NCBI RefSeq assembly: GCF_001945605.1
Contig: NZ_MPKA01000054.1
Span: 1 to 32,000 of the forward strand
Direction of reading: 5' to 3'
DNA length: 32,000 nt
Source of the DNA: Dubosiella newyorkensis
GTDB lineage: Bacteria; Bacillota_I; Bacilli_A; Erysipelotrichales; Erysipelotrichaceae
How positions within the stretch are numbered: position 1 is the first letter of the stretch; every line of letters starts with the position of its first letter. Position numbers and translations under genes: made by a program. Of this stretch, positions 3,734 through 28,217 are shown in pieces. The notes beneath the pieces were generated by a model. It worked only from the letters and a program-made list of their open reading frames with translations, was not told where the DNA came from and searched no databases.

Positions 3734-4201
3734 ATGAGAGTAGAACAAGTTAAACAACATCTAGCCAAATATCAACTATCCGAGTCGATCATCACTCTCG
3801 ATGAATCGAGCGCATCTGTAGAAGAAGCCGCCAAAGCCCTTCATATCCAGCCAGAACAAGTCGCTAAATCGTTGACCTTCTCATCCGAAGAAGGATGCAT
3901 CATGGTTCTCTTGGCTGGGGATCGAAAAGTTCACAACGGAAAATTCAAACGCACATTCCACACCAAACCCCACATGCTCTCTAGCGACCAAGTTCTTGCA
4001 TACACCAACCATGAAGTAGGTGGCGTCTGCCCATTTGGGGTGAACGATCATGTCTTCGTTTACTTGGACCGCTCATTGCAAAACTATGACTATGTTTATC
4101 CAGCCTGCGGAGAAAGGAACAACGCCATAAAACTCACCCCACAACAACTGTATGAAATCTCGCAAGCCATCGACTGGGTCGATGTAGCCAAAGACCAATA
4201 A
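3734..4201 (+). CDS. YbaK/EbsC/ProX-type aminoacyl-tRNA deacylase domain protein
   Basis: 155 aa with a family-typical layout (..SVEEAAKAL..VAKSL.., GGVCPFG motif). RBS AAGGAAGG is upstream. Confidence 0.8.
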   Translation: MRVEQVKQHLAKYQLSESIITLDESSASVEEAAKALHIQPEQVAKSLTFSSEEGCIMVLLAGDRKVHNGKFKRTFHTKPHMLSSDQVLAYTNHEVGGVCPFGVNDHVFVYLDRSLQNYDYVYPACGERNNAIKLTPQQLYEISQAIDWVDVAKDQ

Positions 4202-4213
4202 GATGGAGCCAGC

Positions 4214-5341
4214 ATGGAAATCAAAACCGAAACGATCGTCAAACAATGTTTAGAAACGATCCAAGAAAAAATCAATGACCTCAATACGCTCAATATCTTA
4301 GTTATTGGAAAATCGGGTGTTGGAAAAAGCACGCTCATCAACACGATGTTTCGAGGCGAACTCGCCAAAACCGGACTAGGAAGACCGATCACTCAAGAAA
4401 TCCGTAAAATCGAAAAGAAAGATGTTCCACTCGTTATTTACGATACGCCTGGCTTCGAACTTTCTTCTTCGCAACAAAAACAAGTCAAAGAAGAAATCAT
4501 CGAACTCCTCGAACAAGGAGCTCGCTCCAAAGACATCAACGACGCCATCCATTGTATTTGGTATTGCATCAACGTAGGCGCCAATCGAACCTTCGACGAA
4601 ACCGAACTCCAATGGTTAAGGACCTTGACTTCGGAAAATCAAAAATTCAAAGTCCCGATCTTCATCGTGCTCACTCAAGCCATACCTAAGAAAAAAGCGC
4701 AAGAAATGAAGCAGCTGATCGAAAAAGAAAACTTAGACATCGTCAAAGTCGTCCCCGTCCTCGCCAAAGATATGGAATTTGACGACGAGTACACCGCCAA
4801 AGCGTATGGACTCGACCATTTAGTCGATCTGATGAGCGAAGCATTGCCCCAAGAATTAGAAAAAGCCTTTCAAAACGTGCAGATCGCCAATCTCGACGCA
4901 AAAAAAAAGAGCGCTAGAAAAGCGATCGCCACAGCCGTGAGCGCCAGCTTCACCGAAGGATTCACACCCATTCCTTTCGCGGATGCTGCTCTGCTCGTTC
5001 CTACGCAAGTTTCTATGATCGCCGCCATCACCATCATCTATGGATTTGAAGCCAACAAACGCTTTTTGACCGCCTTTATGAGCGCCACGATCGGACCCCT
5101 TTTAGCCACAGGACTCGGAAGGACTCTCAGCGCCAACCTGCTCAAACTCATCCCAGGCGCAGGCAGTCTTGGCGGCGGACTCATCTCCGCAACCACCGCC
5201 AGCCTGATCACGACCGCCATGGGAGAAGCCTACATCCGCTTGATGGAAATGATCATCAAAGGCGAGATCCGCAAAGAAGATCTCGAAACCCGCGCCGGAA
5301 AAAAACAAATCACTCAACTATTCAAAAAAAATTTAAAATAA
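4214..5341 (+). CDS. Small GTPase domain fused to a C-terminal DUF697-like membrane-associated domain
   Basis: G1 is GKSGVGKST and G3 is YDTPGF. The C-terminal half has Gly/Ala-rich hydrophobic segments resembling YcjF/DUF697. The gene starts 12 nt after the ybaK-like stop with a GGAG RBS. Confidence 0.8.
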   Translation: MEIKTETIVKQCLETIQEKINDLNTLNILVIGKSGVGKSTLINTMFRGELAKTGLGRPITQEIRKIEKKDVPLVIYDTPGFELSSSQQKQVKEEIIELLEQGARSKDINDAIHCIWYCINVGANRTFDETELQWLRTLTSENQKFKVPIFIVLTQAIPKKKAQEMKQLIEKENLDIVKVVPVLAKDMEFDDEYTAKAYGLDHLVDLMSEALPQELEKAFQNVQIANLDAKKKSARKAIATAVSASFTEGFTPIPFADAALLVPTQVSMIAAITIIYGFEANKRFLTAFMSATIGPLLATGLGRTLSANLLKLIPGAGSLGGGLISATTASLITTAMGEAYIRLMEMIIKGEIRKEDLETRAGKKQITQLFKKNLK

Positions 5342-5344
5342 TGT

Positions 5345-5373
5345 TTGACACACCCCAAGATGTAGGGTATTAT
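5345..5373 (+). promoter_or_regulatory. Sigma-70-type promoter of tRNA unit 1
   Basis: TTGACA (5345-5350), a 17-nt spacer, then TATTAT (5368-5373), about 20 nt before tRNA-Ile. Confidence 0.6.
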
Positions 5374-5392
5374 AAATGAGAATTCAGCAATC

Positions 5393-5469
<77 letters not shown>

Positions 5470-5487
5470 TTTGCTGAATTAATATGT

Positions 5488-5563
5488 GGGGTGTTAGCTC
5501 AGCTGGGAGAGCACCTGTTTTGCACGCAGGGGGTCAGGAGTTCGATCCTCCTACGCTCCACCA
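5488..5563 (+). tRNA. tRNA-Ala (anticodon UGC), encoded CCA
   Basis: Acceptor GGGGTGT/ACGCTCC with a G3:U70 pair, anticodon loop TTTGCAC, and T-arm GGAGTTCGATCCTCC. Confidence 0.95.
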
Positions 5564-5576
5564 TTTTAAAAACAAC

Positions 5577-5611
5577 GAACACTTTCTTGAAGAAAGTGTT
5601 CTTTTTTTTTT
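5577..5611 (+). terminator. Rho-independent terminator of tRNA unit 1
   Basis: 10-bp stem GAACACTTTC/GAAAGTGTTC with a 5-nt loop and a T10 run. Confidence 0.8.
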
Positions 5612-5766
5612 CGCCACATTATGGTATAATTACAATGCAAGTCGACATCCCTTTCTTTGTTAAAATTCGTCGGCTTGCTTTTTATATGGAGCGAGAAAGA
5701 AGAACAATGAAAATTTAGAAAGATATGATAAAATACTTATACTATCAACGTAAAGAAAAGAGAAGA

Positions 5767-5976
5767 TCATTCTCTGCTTTCTTTATAGTCTTGGTTTTGT
5801 TTCTTATGGGCTTCCATATCCGCTTGGATGAGCTGCTTCACATACGGAGAAAATTGACGATTCTCTAACCATTCGATCATTTCTTTTTCCGTGTTTTTGT
5901 TAAACCGGATCCCCTTTAAAATCGTATGTGTTTTGTTGTATTTATTGCTTGCCCTAATTTGTGCAGGACTTGACAT
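5767..5976 (-). CDS. Small ribbon-helix-helix (Arc/CopG-like) DNA-binding protein, putative
   Basis: 69 aa. The N-terminal segment ASNKYNKTHTILKGIRFNKNTEKEMIEWLEN..YVKQLIQADME resembles Arc-type RHH proteins. A strong RBS GGAGG lies 7 nt before the ATG. Confidence 0.55.
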   Translation of the reverse strand: MSSPAQIRASNKYNKTHTILKGIRFNKNTEKEMIEWLENRQFSPYVKQLIQADMEAHKKQNQDYKESRE

Positions 5977-6010
5977 GAGGTACCTCCGCTTTCTCGTTTT
6001 TCTACGTAAT

Positions 6011-6303: not shown

Positions 6304-6380
<77 letters not shown>

Positions 6381-6401
6381 TGTATTTGATTGTTTCAATG
6401 T

Positions 6402-6477
6402 GGGGTGTTAGCTCAGCTGGGAGAGCACCTGTTTTGCACGCAGGGGGTCAGGAGTTCGATCCTCCTACGCTCCACCA
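6402..6477 (+). tRNA. tRNA-Ala (UGC), second copy
   Basis: Sequence identical to 5488-5563. The Ile-Ala spacer differs (21 nt versus 18 nt). Confidence 0.95.
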
Positions 6478-8143: not shown

Positions 8144-9046
8144 ATGACTCTATTTTTTAGAAGCTTGCCAAGACTTTGGCGCAAAGCCAGCCTAGATCTA
8201 AAACGACATTTTGCCATGACCTTTTCCGCCTCGCTCTCGATCGGGATCGCTTTGCTCATGGCCATGCTTTTGCTGATCAGCGCTGCAAATATTGCCAACT
8301 TCACCCAACATATCGAACAAGAACTTATGATCCAAGTCTCCTTGCAGCCAACGCTCGATGCTTCACAACAAGAAAACATCCAGCAACAGCTCGTCAACAT
8401 CCAAGGCGTCAAGAACGTCACCTATTCCTCCAAAGAAGAGGAACTCGACAAATTGATCCAAGAAAACGGAGACATCTTCGCCCAATACGCTCAAGAAGGA
8501 AGAAACCCCCTCTATAATGTCTTTTTGATCGAAGCCGATCACGCCGACCAAATCGAAACGATCTCAAAAAAAGCGAAAACGATCCATGGCGTGATCGACG
8601 TCAGCTATGGCGGAGGCGCGATCCAAAAACTCATCGCCCTCTTTAAAAATGTCCGCATATGGGGCACTCTCTTTGTCGCCCTCATGATCCTGCTAGCCAT
8701 CTATCTCATACGAAATACGATCAAAATGACGATCCATGTCCGTAAGGACGAGATCGCCATCATGCGCCAAGTCGGCGCCTATAATTGGTTCATCACGGTC
8801 CCATTCGTATTGGAAGGAATGATCATCGGCCTAAGAGGCGCCTTGATCCCCGCCCTGATCGCCGGCATTGGCTATCCGCTCTTATATCAAACGATGAACG
8901 GTGTCTTTTTATCCGACATGTTCATCCTTCTTTCACCGATCCCCTTTATTCTCTATCTTGTCGCTTTTTTGCTTTTGTTAGGCTTAGGCGCAGGATTGGT
9001 CGGCTCCTATCTAGCCGTTAGAAAATATGTGAGATTTATCCGATGA
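8144..9046 (+). CDS. FtsX-like ABC permease paralog with no adjacent cognate ATPase gene upstream
   Basis: Overall pattern shared with the ftsX at 11118: N-terminal TM segment, extracellular domain with SSKEEEL, YGG, IMRQVGA, and three C-terminal TM segments. RBS GGAGGA lies before the ATG at 8144; the track start at 8123 is GTG. Confidence 0.85.
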   Translation: MTLFFRSLPRLWRKASLDLKRHFAMTFSASLSIGIALLMAMLLLISAANIANFTQHIEQELMIQVSLQPTLDASQQENIQQQLVNIQGVKNVTYSSKEEELDKLIQENGDIFAQYAQEGRNPLYNVFLIEADHADQIETISKKAKTIHGVIDVSYGGGAIQKLIALFKNVRIWGTLFVALMILLAIYLIRNTIKMTIHVRKDEIAIMRQVGAYNWFITVPFVLEGMIIGLRGALIPALIAGIGYPLLYQTMNGVFLSDMFILLSPIPFILYLVAFLLLLGLGAGLVGSYLAVRKYVRFIR

Positions 9047-10422
9047 ACACATTCAAAAAAACAAGCGCAGCCATCCTAGCGCTCTCTTTGAGCTTGTATT
9101 CCTTCTCTACGCCCCTCTTTGCCCAAGACTACTCCAACACCGAAGAATGGTATACGACATGTTCAAAACCCCAAACATCGCAAGAGGGCGTAAAAGCTTG
9201 CCAAGGCTTTCAAGAATACCAAAACAAACGCAAAGAAGAATTGGCCCAAAGCATCCAAAGCTTCAACGAATCGATCCAAACCCTTGAAAACGACACGAAC
9301 CAAGTCGCGGCGCTTGCCCAAGAACAAAAAGCGCTCGCCGAACAACTCAATACCCAGATCGCCGAAAAAGAAGCGGCCATCCAGCAAATCGAAGCCAACA
9401 TCCAAACGCTCCAACAAGAAATCGAAGCCAAACAAGCCGAAATCGAAGCGTGGGACGCCCAGATCAAAGAAAGGATGCGCTTTGAACAAGCCAACTTAGG
9501 CACCAATATGATCATCGACCTCGTCATGGGCAGCAAGAACCTCAACGACATGCTCCGCCGCATCAGCGGCATCGAGCGCATCACCGAAGACGACCAAGAC
9601 CAGATCGAACGCTTGAACGAGCTCAAAGCCGAGCTCGAACTCCAAAAATCCGAAATGGACCGCCTCAAACAAGAACAAGAAAGCCAAAAGACGCAGCTCG
9701 AAGAACAAAGAGCCCAAGCCCAAGCTTTAGAAGAAAGCTATAATAAAATGGTCGAACAATACCAAGCCCAGATCCTTGAGCTCCAAGCCAAAAAGCGCGA
9801 AGCCCAAATCGATATGGATTCGATCCGCAACTTTACGATCTCGACCGCCATGGGCAACGTCATGATCGCTAGCGTTCCAGGCTTTAGCGCCCCGATCGCA
9901 GGGGGAGGAAAGACGGCAGGCACATGGGCTTATCCTGGAGGAGGCCTTCACTTAGGCTTAGATTGGGGCGTTCCGATCGGAACACCCGTCTATGCTCCAG
10001 CCGATGGACTCATCCTCTACGCCAACAATCCCGTTCCAAGCAATTCCGGCTATTTAGGAAACTGGAGCGGCTACCCATATGGCGGAGGAAATACGATCGA
10101 AATGCTCTGCAACGTCAATGGAACGTTGTACGCGATCTCCTTTGCCCACTTAGCCCAAGAAAACTTTATGGTCAGCGCCGGACAAAGCGTCGCGCAAGGC
10201 CAGCAGATCGCGGCCACAGGCAATTCCGGAAACACATCCGGCCCCCATTGCCATATCGAAATCTACAATCTAGGACAAATGAGCGTCGAAGAAGCCGTCA
10301 GTCGCTTTTCGAAAAACGCCGACTTCGCTTGGGGAACGGGATGGAGCGGCACAGGAACTTCTTGCGATGCGACAGGGGGCAGGACCCCGTGCCGAGAGCG
10401 TCCCGAAAAATTCTTCTCTTAG
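9043..10422 (+). CDS. Secreted coiled-coil M23 metallopeptidase (EnvC/PcsB-like peptidoglycan hydrolase or activator)
   Basis: Signal peptide ..STPLFA/QD, then about 240 aa of Q/E/A-rich coiled-coil. The C-terminal M23 motifs are HLGLDWG, PVYAPADG and GPHCHIE. The start overlaps the upstream stop (ATGA). Confidence 0.9.
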   Translation: MNTFKKTSAAILALSLSLYSFSTPLFAQDYSNTEEWYTTCSKPQTSQEGVKACQGFQEYQNKRKEELAQSIQSFNESIQTLENDTNQVAALAQEQKALAEQLNTQIAEKEAAIQQIEANIQTLQQEIEAKQAEIEAWDAQIKERMRFEQANLGTNMIIDLVMGSKNLNDMLRRISGIERITEDDQDQIERLNELKAELELQKSEMDRLKQEQESQKTQLEEQRAQAQALEESYNKMVEQYQAQILELQAKKREAQIDMDSIRNFTISTAMGNVMIASVPGFSAPIAGGGKTAGTWAYPGGGLHLGLDWGVPIGTPVYAPADGLILYANNPVPSNSGYLGNWSGYPYGGGNTIEMLCNVNGTLYAISFAHLAQENFMVSAGQSVAQGQQIAATGNSGNTSGPHCHIEIYNLGQMSVEEAVSRFSKNADFAWGTGWSGTGTSCDATGGRTPCRERPEKFFS

Positions 10423-12059: not shown

Positions 12060-13508
12060 ATGAAGAAAACAAAAAAACCAAGCGAAAGACAGAGCGCTAA
12101 GCAAAAAGGACTCATCCTCCTTTTATGTGTTGCTTGTTTTGGGGCCGGCGTGAGCGTGCCCATGTTGATCGAGAAGGCAAAAGGCATCGACAGCCAAGAA
12201 TTCTCAAAATTAGAGACGGTCTATTCGCTTTTAAAGAATCAATGGTACTATGGCGCGCAAATCGAAAATTTGGAGGATCAATTGATCGAGCAATCGATCG
12301 TCGGGATGAGCAGCAACGAGATCGATCCACACACGAACTATCTTGGCCTTGATCAAGCCAAAGATTTTTCGGACGCGCTAAGCGGAAGCAATGTCGGCAT
12401 TGGCACGGGCTTTTATCGCGACGCCGACAACAATATGGTCGTCAAAAGCGTCTTTATCGATTCGGCCGCTGATCAAGCGGGCATTCAAGAAGGCGATGTC
12501 ATCACCAAGGTGGGCTCGAAAATGGTCAGCGACATCTCCAGCGAAGATTTGATCACGCTCATTCAAAATCATGATGGCCAAAATCTAGACATCACCTTGA
12601 TGCGGAATGGAGAGCCGAAAAATGTCCACGTCGTTCCGGGCGTGTATGATTCGACCGTGATCTGCCGTGAATTTGACGGATATGGAGAAATCGTTCTTTC
12701 TAGCTTTTCCGAACATAGCGGACAAGACTTTAAAAAAGCGGTCGAACGCTTGCAAGAAAAAGGGATCAAAAAGATCATCATCGACCTTCGCAACAATACG
12801 GGCGGTTATCTCGACGCGGCCATTCAGATCGCTTCTTCCCTTCTTCCTAAGGAAAGCATCGTGTTCAAGGAAAAGACACGCAATGGAAAGATTGAAGAAA
12901 GCGAAGTGCTCGATTCGTATACGCCAGCTCAATTTGATCAGATCGTCCTCTTGCAAAACGAAAATAGCGCTAGTGCTTCGGAAGTGCTCATTGGCGCTTT
13001 GAAAGACAATCTCAAAGACAAGGTGACAACGATCGGTTCGACAAGCTATGGAAAAGGAACGAAGCAAGTGCTCGTCCCTTTCAGCGATGGAACTTCTTTA
13101 AAATACACAGAATCGGAATGGCTCACACCTTCTGGTGAGTCGATCAACAATAAAGGGTTCGCGCCCGATGTCGAAGTCGAAGATACGGCGATCCGGCAAT
13201 CGTATTATTCCACCCAAGAAGAAGATCTTGAATTTGAACAAGATAGCGTGAATCCCAACGCGCAAGCTTTGCAGCTCTTTTTACAATATCTTGACTATCC
13301 TGTGGATCGGGTGGATTCCTATTTCTCGGCCCAATCGGCCCAAGCGCTCAAGCAGTTCCAGGAAGATCATCAATTGGAGGCGAATGGCAAAGTCGACGCC
13401 AAGACGTGGGAAGTTCTTGAACAAGAGGTCAGCTTAAAAATGAATCAAAAAGAGATGGAGGACGATGTTCAGCTTCAAAAGGCGATCGAATTGATCAAAG
13501 CAGAATAG
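12060..13508 (+). CDS. S41 family C-terminal processing peptidase (CtpA/CtpB-like) with PDZ domain and C-terminal peptidoglycan-binding repeat
   Basis: N-terminal TM anchor; PDZ-like segment (GIQEGDVITKVG); S41 core (IIDLRNNTGGYL, ASASEVL, GTKQ); PG_binding_1-like tail (ALKQFQEDHQLEANGKVDAKTW). Confidence 0.9.
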   Translation: MKKTKKPSERQSAKQKGLILLLCVACFGAGVSVPMLIEKAKGIDSQEFSKLETVYSLLKNQWYYGAQIENLEDQLIEQSIVGMSSNEIDPHTNYLGLDQAKDFSDALSGSNVGIGTGFYRDADNNMVVKSVFIDSAADQAGIQEGDVITKVGSKMVSDISSEDLITLIQNHDGQNLDITLMRNGEPKNVHVVPGVYDSTVICREFDGYGEIVLSSFSEHSGQDFKKAVERLQEKGIKKIIIDLRNNTGGYLDAAIQIASSLLPKESIVFKEKTRNGKIEESEVLDSYTPAQFDQIVLLQNENSASASEVLIGALKDNLKDKVTTIGSTSYGKGTKQVLVPFSDGTSLKYTESEWLTPSGESINNKGFAPDVEVEDTAIRQSYYSTQEEDLEFEQDSVNPNAQALQLFLQYLDYPVDRVDSYFSAQSAQALKQFQEDHQLEANGKVDAKTWEVLEQEVSLKMNQKEMEDDVQLQKAIELIKAE

Positions 13509-13541
13509 AGGATCAAAAAATTAAATTAAGGGGGTGTTTCT

Positions 13542-14204
13542 ATGGATCATGATAGAAACAAAAAAACATGGAAGCCCGTATTGAATTCGATCAATGCGCA
13601 TTCCAACACGATATCTTTATATATTGCGCTTTTTTCGCTGATTTTCAGTATCTTTACTTTTTATATGACCGTCAAGATCGAGGAGCATTCGAACTATTTA
13701 TCGGATTTGCAAGCGCCTTGTATTTATAAGCTCAAGGTGAGCGGGAATGTAGAGTTTCCGAAAGTGGATGCGGGCGCCTCGACGATCGAGCTGGATCAAA
13801 CGCGGATCGTTTTAGCGATCACGAGCGGTTCGGTGCTCGATATTGGCAACGTGGTGATGTCTGATGATGGCTACATTGAAAGGATCCGTTCTTGGTCGAT
13901 CGCGCAGCATCAGCCTGCCAACAAGGAAATGGAAGCAGAAGAAGAAAAGCTCGATGGAACGACGACACTTTCGTATCGGCCGGGTTTATGGAACTATGAG
14001 GCTTCTTCTAAAAGTGCGTATACGGTGTTGTTCGTAAAGACAGGAAACAACACGAGCGATATTTGGCTGCTTGTGCTCGATGAAAACGGGAAGCTGAGTA
14101 TTTATGGCTACGACGCGTTGGCGATCGATCCAGACAGCAAGTATCCTAAGGCGTTCGAGGCTTATCGGAAGGCGCGTGAATTTTTAGTCGCCAACGACAT
14201 TTGA
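13542..14204 (+). CDS. Hypothetical membrane-anchored protein
   Basis: One N-terminal TM segment ([21 protein letters not shown]). RBS AAGGGGG. Tightly packed between the ctp and uvrB genes. No family recognised. Confidence 0.7.
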
Positions 14205-18128: not shown

Positions 18129-19019
18129 ATGGCTGGATTTAAACGCTTAAAGGCATCTTTGCAAGAAAAAAAAGACACAAATTTATTGTTTGCGCTGGTT
18201 CAGCGGTATTTGAACAACAATATTGGCACGAAGTCGGCGGCGATGGCGTATTATCTTGTTTTTACGCTTTTTCCTTTGATGATCGTTCTTGGGAACATTT
18301 TGGCAATGTTCCATATCAATGTGGATACGCTCACGAGTTTTTTGAAGCCGCTCATGCCTATGGATACGATTCAATTGTTGGCGAGCTACATCAATTATGT
18401 GAATGAGTCGTTCAGTCCGGTTTTTTTGTCGTTTGCGATCATTTTTTCGATTTATTTTCCATATCGGGCGATCAAGGATCTGATGGAGGATGTTCGTGCG
18501 GCGTATGGGCTTGGCAAGCGCGCTTCTTTTTTGTCTTCGTTATGGCGCGAGCTTGTATGTACGTTCCTGATTCCATTGAGCTTGTTGTTGTCGTTTTTAT
18601 TGGTGGTGCTTGGTGAAAATGTCATTCGTTTCTTTTTGGGTTTTTTCCCGGCGGATTTTTTTCATATTTCGGATTTGATCTTGCATTTGTGGCAATATTT
18701 ACGGTTCGTGGCGGCCGCTTTATTGATGGGGGCTTCTTTAGGTGTCTTGTATCAGTTGAGCCTGGATCAATGGGTGCGGTTCAAAAAGGTCGTGCCAGGG
18801 ATCGCGTTTGCGATCTTGGTATGGATCGTCATGTGTATCGGATTTTCGTTTTATGTGGAAAACTTTGCCCATTATTCTGTGATCTATGGAGCGCTTGGTG
18901 GTTTTATCGTTCTGCTGTTGTGGTTGTATTGGACAAGCTTGATCTTCATCATGGGTGGCGAGTTCAATGCGGCGATCGATAAGAAGCGTCAGATCGAGAT
19001 GGATGTTCAAAAAGCATAA
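18129..19019 (+). CDS. YihY/BrkB (virulence factor BrkB / former RNase BN) family membrane protein
   Basis: 296 aa, six hydrophobic segments, family-typical N-terminus (..AAMAYYLVFTLFPLMIVL..). Confidence 0.85.
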   Translation: MAGFKRLKASLQEKKDTNLLFALVQRYLNNNIGTKSAAMAYYLVFTLFPLMIVLGNILAMFHINVDTLTSFLKPLMPMDTIQLLASYINYVNESFSPVFLSFAIIFSIYFPYRAIKDLMEDVRAAYGLGKRASFLSSLWRELVCTFLIPLSLLLSFLLVVLGENVIRFFLGFFPADFFHISDLILHLWQYLRFVAAALLMGASLGVLYQLSLDQWVRFKKVVPGIAFAILVWIVMCIGFSFYVENFAHYSVIYGALGGFIVLLLWLYWTSLIFIMGGEFNAAIDKKRQIEMDVQKA

Positions 19020-19028
19020 GAAGAGAAA

Positions 19029-19056
19029 GAAGGAGCCTTGTGGGCTCCTTCTTTTT
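19029..19056. terminator. Bidirectional rho-independent terminator (yihY-like gene / Nudix gene)
   Basis: 9-bp stem GAAGGAGCC/GGCTCCTTC, loop TTGTG, T5 downstream and an A-rich run upstream. Confidence 0.75.
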
Positions 19057-19471
19057 AGGGGAATAAGAGGGTGTCTTGAGCTAATTTTTGAGCGATCGGC
19101 AAGTCTGCTGGAAGCCAGTCGATTGAAAGAAGGTCAGCGGGCAAGACCCATTTGGCGGCTTCATGCTCCACCAATTGGAGCTCTCCGTTTTTGATCGTTC
19201 CAATAAAACAATCCATCGATAAAAGGAAAGAAGGATATTCATAGTCGATGTGCTCATAAAATTTTTGGATAGAGGTATCGACTTTAAGTTCTTCTTTGAG
19301 TTCCCGAACAAGAGCTTCTTCCTTGGTTTCATGGGGTTCTACTTTCCCTCCAGGAAACTCCCATCCTCCTTTAAATTCGCCATATCCGCGTTGCGTTGCT
19401 AAGATCTTTCCGTTTTGAATGAGGATCCCAGCGACGACGTGGATCTTTTTTTTAATTTGTGATGTAGTCAT
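19055..19471 (-). CDS. MutT/NudG-type Nudix (deoxy)nucleoside triphosphate pyrophosphohydrolase
   Basis: Nudix box GGWEFPGGKVEPHETKEEALVRELKEELKV. ATG at 19471 gives 138 aa (MTTSQIKKKIHVVAG..). The track start at 19564 would sit 113 nt inside the upstream gene. Confidence 0.85.
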   Translation of the reverse strand: MTTSQIKKKIHVVAGILIQNGKILATQRGYGEFKGGWEFPGGKVEPHETKEEALVRELKEELKVDTSIQKFYEHIDYEYPSFLLSMDCFIGTIKNGELQLVEHEAAKWVLPADLLSIDWLPADLPIAQKLAQDTLLFP

Positions 19472-22370
19472 AAATGTCTGAGCGGACTGGATGTTCGAGT
19501 TCGTATTCGATTTCAACGGCGCTTTTGCCGCCAACAGTAACGGTTTTATAATGTCCAGTCGCAAAAATCCTTCCTAAGTAGTAGAATTCTTTTGATTCTT
19601 TGTCGTCTTTGTTTTTGCGAACGAATAAATACATATTCACGTTTTTTTCTTTGGCTTTAAGCGCGATCGAAACATCGCTTGAATCGGGAGTCCTGCCTTG
19701 TTTTGAGATTGCTTTTAAAAGACTTGGCGAAATAAAACGGTCTTCGTATTTTGTCGTTTCTGAAATCGTCTCTTCCTTCACATAATTAATATAGATAGGA
19801 TATGTTTTTGTTTGTTCATCATACTTATATCCGCCAATATTCAAAGCGACTTCTCCTTTTTCCCAATTCAATAAACGGCCGACATCATCGTACGTGTACT
19901 TCGCATATAAAACAAAAGGCGAATTATCACTTGAATGCAGATATTTTGTTTTATAAAGATAGATACCATACTCGATCACTTCTTCGATACTTTCTTTGAA
20001 ATCTTTGTTTTTGAGTAAAGAATCAAAGTGAGAAGAGATCGTATAATCGTTTCCTTCTTCCTTTAAAAAGATACAATCTTTATACGTATCCTTTCCCGTT
20101 CCTGTGATGTAGTTGTTCGTAAATTGATTGACAAGATTGATCGTACCACTATGATCGAGATCAAGTCCATAGTCTTCTTTTAAGCAAGATGCAAAATGAG
20201 CAAAAGAAGGTTTCTTTTTGGAAAGAAGTTCTTTTAAAAGAAGAAGCTCATGGATCCTTTTTCCAGAAGCAAAACGCTTTGATATGTATTCTAAAATCTT
20301 TAATTGTTCTTTGGAAAAGGAGAATGGATACTCTTTTTCATATTTTTGTAAGTAAGCTGGATAGGAACCAAATTTTTGGAGGATCTTGGAAGGTTCGATT
20401 TCACCAAATTCTTCAAAATCCATCAAGGTCGGTATTCTACCGAGCATTTGTTTTAACTGCAAATAAGAATCACGAATCAATTTTGTCGTTTGAAGCTTTG
20501 CTTGATCGATCGATTCGAAGATTTTTTCTCGCGAGATCCGATCAAAATGGATCGTTGAGCTTCCGGGCAATAATCGATCGCCTTCTAAAACGAAGTGGCG
20601 GATCGTATCTTTGTTGTAGGTGCGATCGCTAGAAAGAGCGATCGGGATCATATAGTTGCTTTGATAATTACCAATAAAATCTAAGATCACGACATATTCT
20701 TTTTCTTTATATTTTCGTAAGCCTCTTCCAAGTTGTTGAATAAAGATGATCGGACTTTCTGTAGGACGTAGCATGATGATTTGATTGATACTTGGAATAT
20801 CGACGCCTTCATTGAAGATTTCAACAGTAAAAATATAATCCAAACTGTTTTCTTTTTCATTTTGTGCAAGACGTGCGATCGCTTGTTCTCTTATTTGTGA
20901 AGAATCTTCACCTGTTAAATATGTCGTATGAAACCCTTTTTGATTGAACCGGTTCGAAAGTTCTTTGGCTTCTTCTTTCCGAGAAACAAAGATCAATCCT
21001 TTTGGACGAGGACCACTATATCCATAGTATTGGATCTTTTCGATGATATAGTTCACGCGATCTTCTTGGATTAGATAGTTAAAATTTCTGAGATCTTCTT
21101 TTTCGTAAAGATTTCCATCAACTAAAAAATCGGTGATCCCAAAATAATGGAAAGGACAAAGTAAATTTTCTTTTAAAGCTTGATTCAAACGGATCTCATA
21201 GGCGATGTTATGATCGAAAAGTGCATAGAGATCATAATTGTCTCTTCGTTCTGGAGTTGCTGTCATCCCTAACAAAAGTTTTGGTTCAAAATAATGAATT
21301 ATTTTTTGATAGCTGTATGCACCAGCACGATGAACTTCATCGATGATGATCGCATCAAACTCTCTTGGATCAAGATTTGATAGGACATCATCTTTAGAGA
21401 CGAATTGGATCGTCGAAAATACATAGTCTGCCCTTGAGGATCGATGCTTGGAAGTCAATTTTCCATAGGTTCTTTCTTCTTTGAGAACGACTTGAAAGCT
21501 GTTGAGTGCTTGTTCTACGATCACGTCACGATGAACAAGAAAGAGGATCCGCTGAAAATGGAGCTCGCGCATCGCAAAAGCAGCAGCAAATGTTTTCCCT
21601 GTCCCTGTAGAGCTGATCAATAAAGCCCGTTTTTGCCCATGATCGATGAGCTTTTTTAAATTTTTGATGAACGCGTGTTGCATCGTGTTTGGCTCAAGCT
21701 TTTGAACGATTGTTTTCGTATCCGTATGAGGTAAAGTACTGTTGAATGTTTTATGATAGTTTTTAAACTCTTCTTGATAAAAATCTTTGAATTCCACATA
21801 ATCAAAACTCATTTCAGAATTCCAATACGTATTGAATTCAAAGAGAAGAGATGTGCTTAAGCTTCCTGTTTCTAAAGCAACGATGCGAGTATTCCATTCT
21901 TTATTCACTGTCAGCGCGGATTGGGTTAAGTTAGAGCTTCCAATGATTGCCCGAACTTGATTACCTCTTTTGAAAATATAGCCTTTTGTGTGAAAGCCGG
22001 GAGCGTTTGGCTGAACATGGTAGAGCTTGACTTCAATATTTTTTAAGTTCGAAAGACGCTCAAGTGCCGATGGATCAGAAAAACATAAGTAATCGGTCGT
22101 TAAGATCTTTCCGGGAATGCCTTTTTCTTCTAGTTCCTTGAATACTTGGAGAAGAGGAGTAAGGCCGCTCATGGTGATAAAAGCCGTGCTAAAACAAAAG
22201 GAATCACAATTCTTCAATTCTTCTTCAAGGGCGACAAGGACCTTTTTGCCTTGAAGAGGATCGTTTTGGAGAAGCTGTAATTCTAGGTCGGGACGAGAAT
22301 AATAATCTTGATCGATCAAAGATGTTTGTACTGAAGCTAATAATTCTTCTTTATGGATCGTAGTATACAT
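19452..22370 (-). CDS. SauUSI-like PLD-nuclease / SF2 helicase-ATPase / DUF3427 protein (putative Type IV modification-dependent restriction enzyme)
   Basis: 972 aa. PLD motif FHTKGYIFKRGNQVRAIIGSSNLT; Walker A SSTGTGKTF; DEVH box; motif VI QQLGRGLR; C-terminal DUF3427-like region (..FVLYAKYTYDDVGRLLNW..FYYLGRI..). RBS AAGAGGGA. Confidence 0.85.
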   Translation of the reverse strand: MYTTIHKEELLASVQTSLIDQDYYSRPDLELQLLQNDPLQGKKVLVALEEELKNCDSFCFSTAFITMSGLTPLLQVFKELEEKGIPGKILTTDYLCFSDPSALERLSNLKNIEVKLYHVQPNAPGFHTKGYIFKRGNQVRAIIGSSNLTQSALTVNKEWNTRIVALETGSLSTSLLFEFNTYWNSEMSFDYVEFKDFYQEEFKNYHKTFNSTLPHTDTKTIVQKLEPNTMQHAFIKNLKKLIDHGQKRALLISSTGTGKTFAAAFAMRELHFQRILFLVHRDVIVEQALNSFQVVLKEERTYGKLTSKHRSSRADYVFSTIQFVSKDDVLSNLDPREFDAIIIDEVHRAGAYSYQKIIHYFEPKLLLGMTATPERRDNYDLYALFDHNIAYEIRLNQALKENLLCPFHYFGITDFLVDGNLYEKEDLRNFNYLIQEDRVNYIIEKIQYYGYSGPRPKGLIFVSRKEEAKELSNRFNQKGFHTTYLTGEDSSQIREQAIARLAQNEKENSLDYIFTVEIFNEGVDIPSINQIIMLRPTESPIIFIQQLGRGLRKYKEKEYVVILDFIGNYQSNYMIPIALSSDRTYNKDTIRHFVLEGDRLLPGSSTIHFDRISREKIFESIDQAKLQTTKLIRDSYLQLKQMLGRIPTLMDFEEFGEIEPSKILQKFGSYPAYLQKYEKEYPFSFSKEQLKILEYISKRFASGKRIHELLLLKELLSKKKPSFAHFASCLKEDYGLDLDHSGTINLVNQFTNNYITGTGKDTYKDCIFLKEEGNDYTISSHFDSLLKNKDFKESIEEVIEYGIYLYKTKYLHSSDNSPFVLYAKYTYDDVGRLLNWEKGEVALNIGGYKYDEQTKTYPIYINYVKEETISETTKYEDRFISPSLLKAISKQGRTPDSSDVSIALKAKEKNVNMYLFVRKNKDDKESKEFYYLGRIFATGHYKTVTVGGKSAVEIEYELEHPVRSDIYDYITN

Positions 22371-22433
22371 GTGGTTCCCTCTTATTGGCAGGATAGCATA
22401 TTCAAAGCTTTAGATCAAAAAGACAAAGAGAAT

Positions 22434-22442
22434 TGATATAAT
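22434..22442 (+). promoter_or_regulatory. Extended -10 promoter (TGaTATAAT) placing the TSS at or next to the TetR ATG (leaderless)
   Basis: The -10 ends at 22442 and the ATG is at 22449. There is no SD sequence between them. Confidence 0.45.
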
Positions 22443-22448
22443 TGAAAC

Positions 22449-23007
22449 ATGGATACCAAAGAAAAGATCGGCTACACGCCTCTAGAAAAGATCAAAAAAA
22501 AAGCCACTTTCAAAGATCACGATCCAAGAGATCGCAAAAGAAGCCCAAGTCTCTAAACAAACTTTTTATAATTATTTTGAAGATAAGGAAGCTCTCATCC
22601 AATATATCTATGTCCACTTCATCATTCCTGACTTTGATGAGACAGTTTTTTCAGTTTCTTTTTTCCAAAGCTATCTACGATCGTTGAAGCAAATGAAAAA
22701 ATACGGATCCTTTATGAAGCAAGCATTGATGATCGAAGGACAAAACAGTTTAAGATCGTATATTTCAACCCATTGCGAAACGTTCGATCTAGCCTATCAT
22801 CGATATTTGTATGGAAAAGAACTGAATGAAACGTTGCGCTTATCCACGATTTATCATGCCTCTGCCTCAAGCGCAATGACTTTTTCTTGGATCTTAGGAG
22901 AATTTCAAGGAAAAGAAGAAGAGCTTGCCAAACTTGTCTGCCAAATGAGACGTCTTGGAATGGATGCTCTTTGTCAAAAACAAGATCCGTATCAAGTGGA
23001 CGATTGA
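22449..23007 (+). pseudogene. TetR/AcrR-family regulator interrupted by a frameshift in an A9 homopolymer
   Basis: ATG at 22449 encodes MDTKEKIGYTPLEKIKKK in frame A, which stops at 22554-22556. The HTH (PLSKITIQEIAKEAQVSKQTFYNYFEDKEAL) and the rest of the protein continue in the +1 frame to 23007. The switch point is the A9 run at 22494-22502. Confidence 0.75.
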
Positions 23008-23031
23008 TCAAAAACGTAAATCGTCTTTTTT
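22999..23031 (+). terminator. Terminator-like hairpin after the TetR gene
   Basis: Stem GACGATT/AATCGTC with a 13-nt loop, then T6. Confidence 0.45.
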
Positions 23032-23905: not shown

Positions 23906-23924
23906 GCGATCAGCAGCCTTTTTT
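23899..23924. terminator. Bidirectional terminator between the MBL hydrolase gene and folT
   Basis: Stem CTGCTGA/TCAGCAG with a 4-nt loop. T6 lies downstream on the + strand, and a T-rich run follows on the minus strand. Confidence 0.7.
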
Positions 23925-24468
23925 ACAGCTTGAGTTGCGGTTTGATGCGTGCGCACATCCGCAATAAAAGATAGAGCATCGTGCAGTCGATCGGGAACAT
24001 GATCACATTTTTTAATAAGCGAGCCCCCACTAAAACAAAGAAGCTATCGCCATACATGATCGACATCCATAATGAGTTCAAAAATAAGTAGTTGATCAAA
24101 ACGACGAGCAACCTTGCGACGAGCACTCTCCACACCTTGACAGGCTGTTCATAAAAGAACGAGGAAAAAATAAAAGCAAGCAAGATGGCATTGAGCGCAT
24201 AACCAGGAAAATACGGACCATCAGGATGCATCGCATAACCGATAAAATCCATGATCAACCCAGCAATCATATTCGGATAAGGTCCATAAAAATAACAGCT
24301 TGCGGCTGTGGCTAAAAAGCCAAAAGTGATTCGCAACGTGGGCGCTAGGTAAATGTTGAACATGTCGAGAATGACTTCAAGAGCACAGAACATGGCGACT
24401 CCCACGATCACTTTCGTGTTGGTGATGGCGCGAGCATTGTCTTTCAACATAACAAAGTATTGATGCAT
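23923..24468 (-). CDS. folT: ECF transporter S component, folate family
   Basis: 181 aa from the ATG at 24468, preceded by GGAAAGGAGG. FolT-like pattern (LRITFGFL, YGPYP, PYFPGY, LWMSIMYG). A THF riboswitch lies upstream. Confidence 0.85.
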   Translation of the reverse strand: MHQYFVMLKDNARAITNTKVIVGVAMFCALEVILDMFNIYLAPTLRITFGFLATAASCYFYGPYPNMIAGLIMDFIGYAMHPDGPYFPGYALNAILLAFIFSSFFYEQPVKVWRVLVARLLVVLINYLFLNSLWMSIMYGDSFFVLVGARLLKNVIMFPIDCTMLYLLLRMCARIKPQLKL

Positions 24469-24528
24469 AAAAAAACCTCCTTTCCCTCGTGCAAAGAAAA
24501 AAGAGGTCGTATTTCTTATTTCTTGGCA

Positions 24529-24629
24529 ACAGCGGGATGCAGAAAACCAATCGCAAGTTTCGTTTCCTTTTCGTTTTAGAACCAACTCCCCGTGTTCTAA
24601 ACACTTAACGCTTGTTTTCTTACTCTGCT
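24529..24629 (-). promoter_or_regulatory. THF (tetrahydrofolate) riboswitch aptamer
   Basis: The minus strand reads GCAGAGUAAGAAAACAAGCGUUAAGUGU...GCAUCCCGCUGU. This matches the conserved GAGUAG..GCGUUAAGUG..GCAUCCGCU core as I recall it. P1 is GCAGAG/CGCUGU, keeping the expected A-G mismatch with compensatory changes. Confidence 0.75.
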
Positions 24630-27977: not shown

Positions 27978-27992
27978 GTTTCCATAAAACAA

Positions 27993-28217
27993 AGAAAAGA
28001 AGTAGTACAGGCGGAGCGGTTGTTAGAGAAGTGACGGTTGGTGCAAGTCATTGAACTTTACGTTTGGAACGTGTCTTGGAGTTGCATAGTCGATGGATAC
28101 GGAGGCTATGATCGTGAATTCGCGTTAAGAATGAGATGTCATCCATATCGAGTGGATGGAAGTTTGGTGGTACCGCGTAATGTTTACGTCCTTTCGTTTC
28201 GAGGGGACGTTTTTTTG
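27993..28217 (+). promoter_or_regulatory. T-box riboswitch leader, specifier read as CGU (Arg), with intrinsic terminator
   Basis: Stem I has AGUAGUA (28001-28007), the AG bulge AGAGAAG (28025-28031) and the distal loop GGUUGGUGCAA. The specifier loop is GAA-CGU-G (28067-28073). The T-box motif AAGUUUGGUGGUACCGCG is at 28160-28177. The terminator has a 10-bp stem (28186-28210) plus T7. Confidence 0.85.

Follow-up and report, generated by a model that had tools for sequence, protein, structure and literature searches.

A two-gene locus in Dubosiella newyorkensis

The window, by which we mean the whole 32,000-nt stretch of Dubosiella newyorkensis contig NZ_MPKA01000054.1 (positions 1 to 32,000), carries on its minus strand two overlapping genes. 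One encodes a SauUSI-type nuclease of 972 amino acids (19452..22370; open reading frame (ORF) list, Pfam, PDB, and PADLOC), and the other a NudG/3GWY-like Nudix nucleoside triphosphate (NTP) pyrophosphohydrolase of 138 amino acids counted from the first ATG (19055..19471; Pfam, NCBIfam, and PDB). By homology, the large gene is the D. newyorkensis representative of the SauUSI-type type IV restriction enzymes, which consist of a single polypeptide. Its product is 99% identical to the D. newyorkensis protein P0001, is collinear with solved SauUSI (PDB 7clg_A, E = 1e-203, query residues 18-972 against chain residues 16-953), has 39.8% identity to Staphylococcus aureus SauUSI (residues 13-972, 979 columns), and matches the PADLOC model mREase_IV at 3.4e-212 (model positions 11-953 of 953). 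Enzymes of this type combine a PLD nuclease and an SF2 ATP-driven translocase with an SRA-like reader that flips out 5-methylcytosine (5mC) or 5-hydroxymethylcytosine (5hmC), and published work on SauUSI gives ATP or dATP as the cofactor.

The PLD-type nuclease domain occupies amino acids 71 to 165 (21876..22160, minus strand, as are all features of the two genes; PLDc_2 3.2e-8, RE_NgoFVII 1.4e-4). Its motif FHTKGYIF...GSSNLT, with H127, K129, and N147, aligns to GFHAKGYIF...GSSNLT in SauUSI, and H127, K129, S145, and N147 are invariant in an alignment of nuclease homologues (alignment A1). The SF2 ATPase/translocase core spans amino acids 225 to 552 (20715..21698; ResIII 7.9e-38, Helicase_C 5.2e-13), and its motifs I, II, and VI (GTGKT, DEVH, and QQLGRGLR) also align to SauUSI. 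The C-terminal DUF3427 region, comprising the coupler and the SRA-like target-recognition domain (amino acids 695 to 971, 19458..20288; 8.6e-86), covers the entire model (positions 1-280); the protein ends in DIYDYITN, the conserved C-terminus of the family.

Six SauUSI residues (M829, Y831, F841, I842, D858, and W868) have been modelled around the flipped 5mC by Tumuluri et al. (PMC7913695). Judged from the 7clg alignment, and for a pocket that comes from a model, Y831, I842, and D858 are kept in the window as Y848, I861, and D877; F841 is changed to Y860, M829 to G846, and W868 to A887. The enzyme is likely a reader of modified cytosine, and its exact modification specificity is unproven because two of the modelled pocket residues (M829 and W868) differ.

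The small gene product, which is 100% identical to the D. newyorkensis protein P0121, matches the Pfam models NUDIX (4.4e-19; 69.3 bits against a cut-off of 21.1) and NUDIX_4 (3.9e-12). Its NCBIfam scores fall under the cut-offs for NudG (PRK10546, 91.4 against 156) and for both MutT models (TIGR00586, 87.4 against 97.9; PRK10776, 68.6 against 148). The best solved relatives are Vibrio cholerae MutT (4v14, the top match at 2.5e-21), 5x1x, NudG (2rrk), and 3gwy, at 35-38% identity. The Nudix box lies at amino acids 42 to 64 (GKVEPHETKEEALVRELKEELKV; 19280..19348; pattern GX5EX7REUXEEXGU) and reads G42-X5-E48-X7-R56 E57 L58 K59 E60 E61 L62 K63 V64, so that the catalytic Glu and Arg positions are complete. 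In the alignments, the last Gly of the box is Lys in both the window protein and 5X1X, and Asp in 3GWY.

A preliminary description made from the sequence alone had read the large ORF as a PLD nuclease, an SF2 helicase, and a DUF3427-like C-terminus in that order, had compared it with SauUSI, and had called the small gene NudG/MutT-like. These assignments are borne out: the 972-codon frame and all the quoted motifs are present, the full-length 7clg and mREase_IV matches identify a SauUSI-like type IV enzyme, and the Nudix call agrees with Pfam, the NCBIfam ranking, and the PDB matches. The domain models proposed for checking (PLDc_2, ResIII/Helicase_C, DUF3427, and NUDIX) were all matched.

The two genes overlap by 20 nt (19452..19471), with the Nudix ATG placed within the final nuclease codons (...GAC ATT T[ATG ACT ACA TCA CAA ATT AA]A, overlap in brackets). 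No Shine-Dalgarno-like purine run is seen 5' of this ATG in the window, and GAGGG stands upstream of the nuclease ATG. Because the Nudix start lies inside the nuclease gene and lacks a ribosome-binding site, its translation in the D. newyorkensis lineage probably depends on ribosomes that complete the nuclease. The same 20-nt overlap is found only in the window and at loci L001-L003, all of the D. newyorkensis lineage; in other lineages a spacer, in most cases of 0-30 nt, separates the genes, and many loci show a Shine-Dalgarno-like purine run before the Nudix start. The overlap and the enclosed start codon were thus described correctly at the outset, and the translational coupling drawn from them fits this lineage but does not hold for the module as a whole.

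Directly after the Nudix stop lies a hairpin terminator (19026..19054; 12-bp stem, 6 GC pairs), read 19054-19026 on the minus strand, with a T-rich tail on the minus strand and TTTTT on the plus strand. It is shared with a convergent yihY/BrkB-like gene, which stops at 19019 and faces it. A promoter scan showed no minus-strand promoter-like site in the roughly 800 nt that precede the Nudix start. The promoter scan and the hairpin thus agree with the earlier view that the genes lack a promoter between them and end at a common bidirectional terminator, and they support one operon-like unit with a common transcript end. The presumed operon promoter would lie in the 78-nt divergent intergenic region between the nuclease and a TetR-like gene (22371..22448). 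A convincing sigma-70-type promoter was not found there; the sole consensus match (22391-22362) enters the coding sequence.

Conservation and decay of the pair

Linkage of the two genes was surveyed from the nuclease side by a homologue-alignment scan of one genome per species, which gave 80 loci that were then searched with a Nudix profile built from homologues of the window protein. This survey and a second one from the Nudix side each comprise the 80 best matches, and their percentages are rough. The nuclease loci belong to Lachnospiraceae, Erysipelotrichaceae, Veillonella, Selenomonas, Bacteroidales, Fibrobacter, Spirochaetales, Succinatimonas, one Mycoplasma, and one Methanosarcinaceae metagenome-assembled genome; 64 of them, flanked by 600 nt or more on each side, were informative. 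A Nudix gene on the same strand abuts the nuclease in 58 of these 64 genomes (46 downstream, 12 upstream) and lies within 1-2 kb at three further loci. It is absent near the nuclease only at L015, L035, and L064 among the informative loci. L064, from Mycoplasma testudinis, is a genuine absence, with no Nudix nearby; its nuclease is fragmented under genetic code 11 and intact under code 4. At L073 a Nudix remnant (the first 37 codons) stands at the contig end. An intact nuclease with neither a Nudix nor a remnant is rare, about 5% (L015, L035, L064, and L105).

Plasmids give the same picture. Homologues of the nuclease with 36-40% identity are plasmid-borne in Chondrinema, Hymenobacter, Latilactobacillus, and L. 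plantarum, and in all four cases a '(deoxy)nucleoside triphosphate pyrophosphohydrolase' is annotated upstream, 5-9 nt away or overlapping. A Fusobacterium copy of the nuclease has no Nudix neighbor. In the reverse direction, three of three Nudix homologues, chosen for their names and long contigs only, sit behind a SauUSI-like gene. The two proteins also diverge together, their pairwise distances being correlated (r = 0.56; 0 of 2000 permutations as high). The surroundings of the pair vary: the nearest flanking genes represent 137 Pfam families among 134 neighbors, none occurring in more than 7, which leaves no third conserved gene beside the pair, and three Dubosiella-related genomes place it in three different contexts.

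Chance adjacency, in which a restriction gene was inserted beside a housekeeping mutT, could appeal to base composition and to one neighbor. The third-position GC content of the nuclease and the TetR-like gene (0.35 and 0.36) is under that of the Nudix gene (0.43) and the flanking genes (0.42-0.59), and the window and L001 both have the BrkB-like gene next to the Nudix end of the pair. However, the pair is kept in 58 of 64 genomes, all three reverse look-ups were linked, and a relative with 75% identity has the identical 20-nt overlap in a different upstream context. The linkage and the shared overlap exclude this explanation, to which we assign next to no probability. The nuclease and the Nudix form a genuine two-gene module, and the conservation of a Nudix partner beside DUF3427 helicases, for which the preliminary description had proposed a neighborhood survey, is established by the genomic, plasmid, and reverse look-up data.

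Several loci depart from the common arrangement. At L081 two Nudix genes (5519-5977 and 8929-9354) flank the nuclease, the upstream one 3GWY-like and the downstream one more NudG-like. Downstream Nudix ORFs of about 200-225 amino acids at L031 (8968-9651), L043 (8987-9616), L049 (8975-9571), and L059 (8925-9596) have an N-terminal extension of 45-70 residues, beginning MALLKL... in three of the four. At L035, the neighbors at 3754-5142 and 5250-5900 (both minus strand) are a gene with a C5-methyltransferase-like N-terminus (FIDLFAGLGG) and a serine-recombinase-like gene; a cytosine-C5 methyltransferase-like gene is an odd neighbor for a 5mC-dependent nuclease. Genes with an HNH_4 endonuclease domain are the commonest immediate neighbors (7 of 134; L004-L083, alignment A2), Holdemanella L096 has another, divergent from the pair and upstream of it, and Schlafen-group-3 helicase genes occur three times among the nearest neighbors. 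Matches in the phage collection were confined to fecal contigs without annotation and to S. aureus contigs labelled 'UNVERIFIED_ORG', and were uninformative.

The pairing was believed at first to lie outside the described system, and this proved mistaken. Xu et al. 2011 (PMC3141236) found sauUSI to be linked to SAUSA300_2432, a conserved gene of MutT/NUDIX-like type, and counted at least 60 enzymes resembling SauUSI with linked putative pyrophosphohydrolases, whose function, guessed to be pyrophosphate breakdown, was 'to be examined'. The window pair is a new member of this already described module and not a new pairing. The Nudix goes unmentioned in later SauUSI papers and a 2025 review, and our literature search found no paper that assigns a function to the SauUSI-linked Nudix. 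A structure is available: PDB 5X1X ('Mutator mutT protein'), for which a literature search found nothing relevant, is 97% identical to the ORF directly upstream of sauUSI at L104 (2065-2466; S. aureus contig OR845003), and sequence identity thus marks it as the solved structure of the S. aureus SauUSI-linked Nudix.

Loss of the two genes is unequal. From the Nudix side, 73 metagenome loci were informative; 22 of them (30%) have the Nudix without a nuclease, and another 12 (16%) have an intact Nudix beside a truncated or multiply split nuclease. At L139, L154, L165, and L174, all metagenomic, only the last 60-120 nuclease codons remain upstream of an intact Nudix. A comparison of Holdemanella strains (L094, 2086-4988, and L095, 2080-4988, versus L096, 2058-4988) shows a nuclease split at differing places, into products of 272 and 694 or 176 and 794 amino acids, with an identical downstream Nudix protein. 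By analogy, this asymmetry resembles the orphan-methyltransferase pattern of type II restriction-modification (RM) systems.

The Nudix protein and modified cytosine nucleotides

Relatives of the Nudix protein point to 5-substituted deoxycytidine triphosphate (dCTP) as its probable substrate, both characterized enzymes of its branch having a preference for 5-methyl-dCTP. For Escherichia coli NudG, kcat/Km is 1.3e6 with 5-methyl-dCTP and 4.7e4 with CTP; this enzyme acts on 2-OH-dATP too. The Bacteroides fragilis protein Q5LBB1 (structure 3GWY; PMC5158307) reaches 4.8e6 for 5-methyl-dCTP and 4.4e6 for 5-hydroxymethyl-dCTP, with much lower values for canonical NTPs. It is 46-53% identical to the SauUSI-linked Nudix proteins of the upstream class, and it alone has in common with 64 of 65 linked Nudix proteins the Phe of a YPxF motif, which is replaced by Arg or Lys in MutT and NudG. 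All 65 have an Asp that corresponds to D118 of NudG and is also found in 3GWY; in E. coli and V. cholerae MutT this residue is Asn. The window protein carries this 3GWY-like signature (YPxF plus xAD, with D123 as the Asp) at 35% identity to 3GWY. Orf135 mutagenesis has marked E33, R72, R77, and D118 as the substrate-recognition residues of NudG; E33 and D118 are kept as E38 and D123 in the window, and R72 and R77 are Tyr and Phe.

Other data would suit a MutT-type mutation-avoidance enzyme, acting on 8-oxo-dGTP or 2-OH-dATP, that travels with the nuclease for reasons that have nothing to do with cytosine modification, for example by offsetting damage from breakage or by hitch-hiking in mobile islands. 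Databases label the Nudix 8-oxo-dGTP diphosphatase/MutT, V. cholerae MutT is the top PDB match, and the TIGR00586 score comes near its cut-off; NudG acts on 2-OH-dATP, and Monk et al. suggested the degradation of mutagenic nucleotides. The MutT equivalog residues are nevertheless not matched, as the window has D123 for E. coli N119 and F82 for Arg78, and the Asn of MutT is Asp in every one of the linked proteins. In MutT, N119 is the residue that reads 8-oxoguanine. Hitch-hiking leaves the co-divergence, the occurrence of both gene orders across phyla, and the variable flanks unaccounted for, and the second enzyme that recurs beside the pair belongs to a dCTP-specific family, as described next. 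A MutT-type role appears improbable.

This second enzyme is a MazG-like (PF12643) NTP pyrophosphohydrolase. Its gene is directly beside the pair at five loci (L006:4161-4547, L028:4102-4458, L030:2883-3272, L103:5404-5724, and L113:882-1205), and within a few kb of it at L020, L060, L069, L082, L134, L136, L143, and L144; none is present in the window. The protein matches the PDB entries 4qgp ('pyrophosphatase', 1.7e-15) and RS21-C6/DCTPP1 (4.5e-7). DCTPP1/RS21-C6 is described (PMC4491611) as the mammalian 5-methyl-dCTP-cleansing enzyme, which keeps 5-methyl-dCTP out of DNA. Protein sequence, gene neighborhood, and gene loss thus all indirectly favor a Nudix that would hydrolyse 5-substituted dCTP. 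The preliminary description had put forward a Nudix that keeps modified dCTP out of host DNA; this hypothesis is a reasonable one and gains independent, if indirect, backing from these data.

We propose that the Nudix is a pool-sanitizing pyrophosphohydrolase that would cleave 5-methyl-dCTP and 5-hydroxymethyl-dCTP, releasing the monophosphate and pyrophosphate. A type IV enzyme has no protective methyltransferase, and its host would be safe only while its own DNA is free of the mark. The only methyltransferase-independent entry of the mark would be the use of modified dCTP by the polymerase; such dCTP could be salvaged from methylated DNA, among it the foreign DNA that the system has just degraded, or could arise in phage metabolism. 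This is the route that the Nudix would close, acting as a conditional, immunity-like partner that is unneeded for cleavage itself. Taken as a whole, a SauUSI-type enzyme whose host is protected by a Nudix that sanitizes 5-substituted (d)CTP is the best explanation of the locus, which we hold tentatively, as one with a little under an even chance of being right. A broader reading, advanced with slightly more reserve, is that SauUSI-family enzymes may not be truly solitary: the Nudix, joined at some loci by a DCTPP1-like MazG, would provide 'immunity' at the level of the nucleotide pool, the nuclease would be conditionally toxic to its own host without the Nudix, and self would be distinguished from non-self at the DNA precursors.

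Deletion data from S. aureus bear on this proposal. Monk et al. 2012 (PMC3312211), who described the Nudix as possibly degrading mutagenic nucleotides, obtained a Nudix deletion in strain Newman, and it did not gain the transformable phenotype of a sauUSI deletion. Since the mutant stays non-transformable, the Nudix is not needed for restriction, a result that fits a protective rather than a catalytic role. The preliminary description had expected loss of the Nudix to affect restriction or viability; the Newman result, at least in laboratory medium, comes near to contradicting this, with restriction persisting and a deletion strain recovered.

The same result argues against a Nudix that services the nuclease ATPase, either by removing a product or inhibitor (pyrophosphate) or by tuning the ATP/dATP cofactor. 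This role was proposed together with the original linkage (PMC3141236), and SauUSI does need ATP or dATP. However, SF2 ATPases release ADP and phosphate instead of pyrophosphate, and Nudix enzymes make pyrophosphate and do not consume it, as general enzymology has it; the protein, moreover, falls in the base-specific NTP-sanitizing branch. We consider such a role very improbable.

An anti-phage effector that hydrolyses the 5-hydroxymethyl-dCTP or 5-methyl-dCTP made by cytosine-replacing phages, in parallel to the nuclease, draws on the same substrate inference as the sanitizing enzyme. It would starve phage replication, leaving the nuclease to attack any modified DNA that is nevertheless produced. 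The Nudix is retained alone at 22 of 73 loci, as expected if it is useful alone, and the nuclease works without it in S. aureus. It also matches the PADLOC candidate PDC-S07 (HMM PDLC04899) full-length at 1.7e-47 (model positions 3-131 of 135), and a 2025 Streptococcus suis preprint found PDC-S07 co-localized with type IV RM in 23 of 23 genomes. The PDC-S07 model, however, also matches 99% of Enterobacter genomes; because it catches housekeeping NudG, the match says nothing on defense, and we rejected it as a sign of a defense role. An anti-phage effector would give no reason for the nuclease to be found so rarely without the Nudix and would leave the tight operonic fusion in both gene orders unaccounted for, and phage kinases could, we reason, reverse hydrolysis to the monophosphate. 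We regard it as unlikely, while giving it real weight.

Several observations weigh against the sanitizing, host-protecting Nudix that we favor. The window protein shares no more than 35% identity with 3GWY and 38% with NudG and scores under the NudG and MutT cut-offs, and R72 and R77 of NudG, which are important for substrate recognition, are replaced by Tyr and Phe. The nudG gene of E. coli is not known to be linked to a restriction gene. The 3GWY gene and its close relatives also stand alone, not beside a SauUSI-like gene; with both enzymes unlinked, the modified-dCTPase activity exists as general housekeeping, and 3GWY, rejected as a SauUSI-linked enzyme, supports the chemistry and not the linkage. 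On the nuclease side, two modelled 5mC-pocket residues are not kept (M829 to G and W868 to A), and a few intact nucleases have no Nudix. The asymmetry of loss could just mean that the nuclease is costly and the Nudix harmless. Finally, a Nudix deletion strain of S. aureus Newman was obtained (PMC3312211), and any protection must therefore be conditional.

In staphylococci, SauUSI is the chief obstacle to both genetic manipulation and horizontal gene transfer; its homologues are common in gut anaerobes, and a Nudix companion has been documented since 2011. A protective sanitizer would account for the safe carriage of a methyl-directed nuclease where DNA is plentiful and salvage is active, and would amount to a hidden second component of type IV systems. 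The nuclease could then be turned on its own host by Nudix inhibition or by feeding 5-methyl-deoxycytidine. Such a role would also be relevant to strain engineering in Dubosiella and other gut Firmicutes. Should the Nudix prove to be an anti-phage enzyme that depletes deoxynucleotides, it would join a growing class of nucleotide-pool defenses.

Flanking features and comparison with known systems

The divergent TetR-like gene (22442-23010, plus strand) is frameshifted in the window at a run of nine A (22494-22502). The run has seven A in the conspecific L002, and eight would give a clean ORF (MDTKEKI..., ATG at 22449); the difference could be homopolymer length (phase) variation or sequencing error. 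This gene was found only in D. newyorkensis and was rejected as a part of the module. In L002, an rve-family transposase gene (13371-14132) follows the Nudix in the place of the BrkB-like gene, which indicates a strain-level rearrangement at the boundary of the pair. Elsewhere in the window, a THF riboswitch (24528-24629, minus strand) precedes an ECF-transporter S-component gene (23923-24468), a T-box leader is found near 28 kb (27983-28196, plus strand), and two tRNA pairs about 0.9 kb apart (5393-5560 and 6304-6474, plus strand) have identical Rfam scores, as a local duplication might leave.

As a functional analogy only, the pair may be compared with type II RM systems that leave orphan methyltransferases. 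Both would couple a nuclease to a small enzyme that keeps host DNA outside the target class, and in both the nuclease decays while the protective partner stays. The proposed protection differs in acting on the nucleotide pool and not on DNA, and in preventing a mark rather than adding one; for the SauUSI-Nudix pair it is a proposal, and an S. aureus Nudix deletion strain was obtained. Mammalian DCTPP1/RS21-C6 would share the proposed role of keeping 5-methyl-dCTP out of DNA, and its homologues lie beside some SauUSI-Nudix pairs, but it has an all-alpha fold unrelated to Nudix and its gene is absent from the window.

Among Nudix enzymes, E. coli NudG (Orf135; 2RRK) resembles the window protein in overall sequence (38% identity) and in the Asp at D118, and it has the 5-methyl-dCTP preference proposed here; it differs in that the window protein scores under the PRK10546 cut-off (91.4 against 156) and has Tyr and Phe for R72 and R77. 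B. fragilis Q5LBB1 (3GWY) differs in its solitary gene, with no adjoining SauUSI-like gene, and in being 35% identical to the window Nudix. It belongs to the same Nudix branch, with the same YPxF motif and xAD Asp, and its substrates, 5-methyl-dCTP and 5-hydroxymethyl-dCTP, are the precursors of the marks read by SauUSI.

The closest counterpart is the S. aureus system. There the order is Nudix then nuclease, joined by TAA-T-ATG with a 1-nt spacer, in contrast to the nuclease, Nudix, and 20-nt overlap of the window. The nucleases are 39.8% identical and differ at two of six modelled pocket residues, the window Nudix is 35% identical to 5X1X, and the host is a gut Erysipelotrichaceae with a TetR-like gene divergently upstream. 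Both systems nonetheless have a nuclease (SAUSA300_2431; 7CLG) with the same order of PLD, SF2 ATPase, coupler, and SRA/DUF3427 parts, aligned over its full length and with its catalytic and ATPase motifs in common, and both combine it in one operon with a NudG/MutT-like Nudix (SAUSA300_2432; 5X1X).

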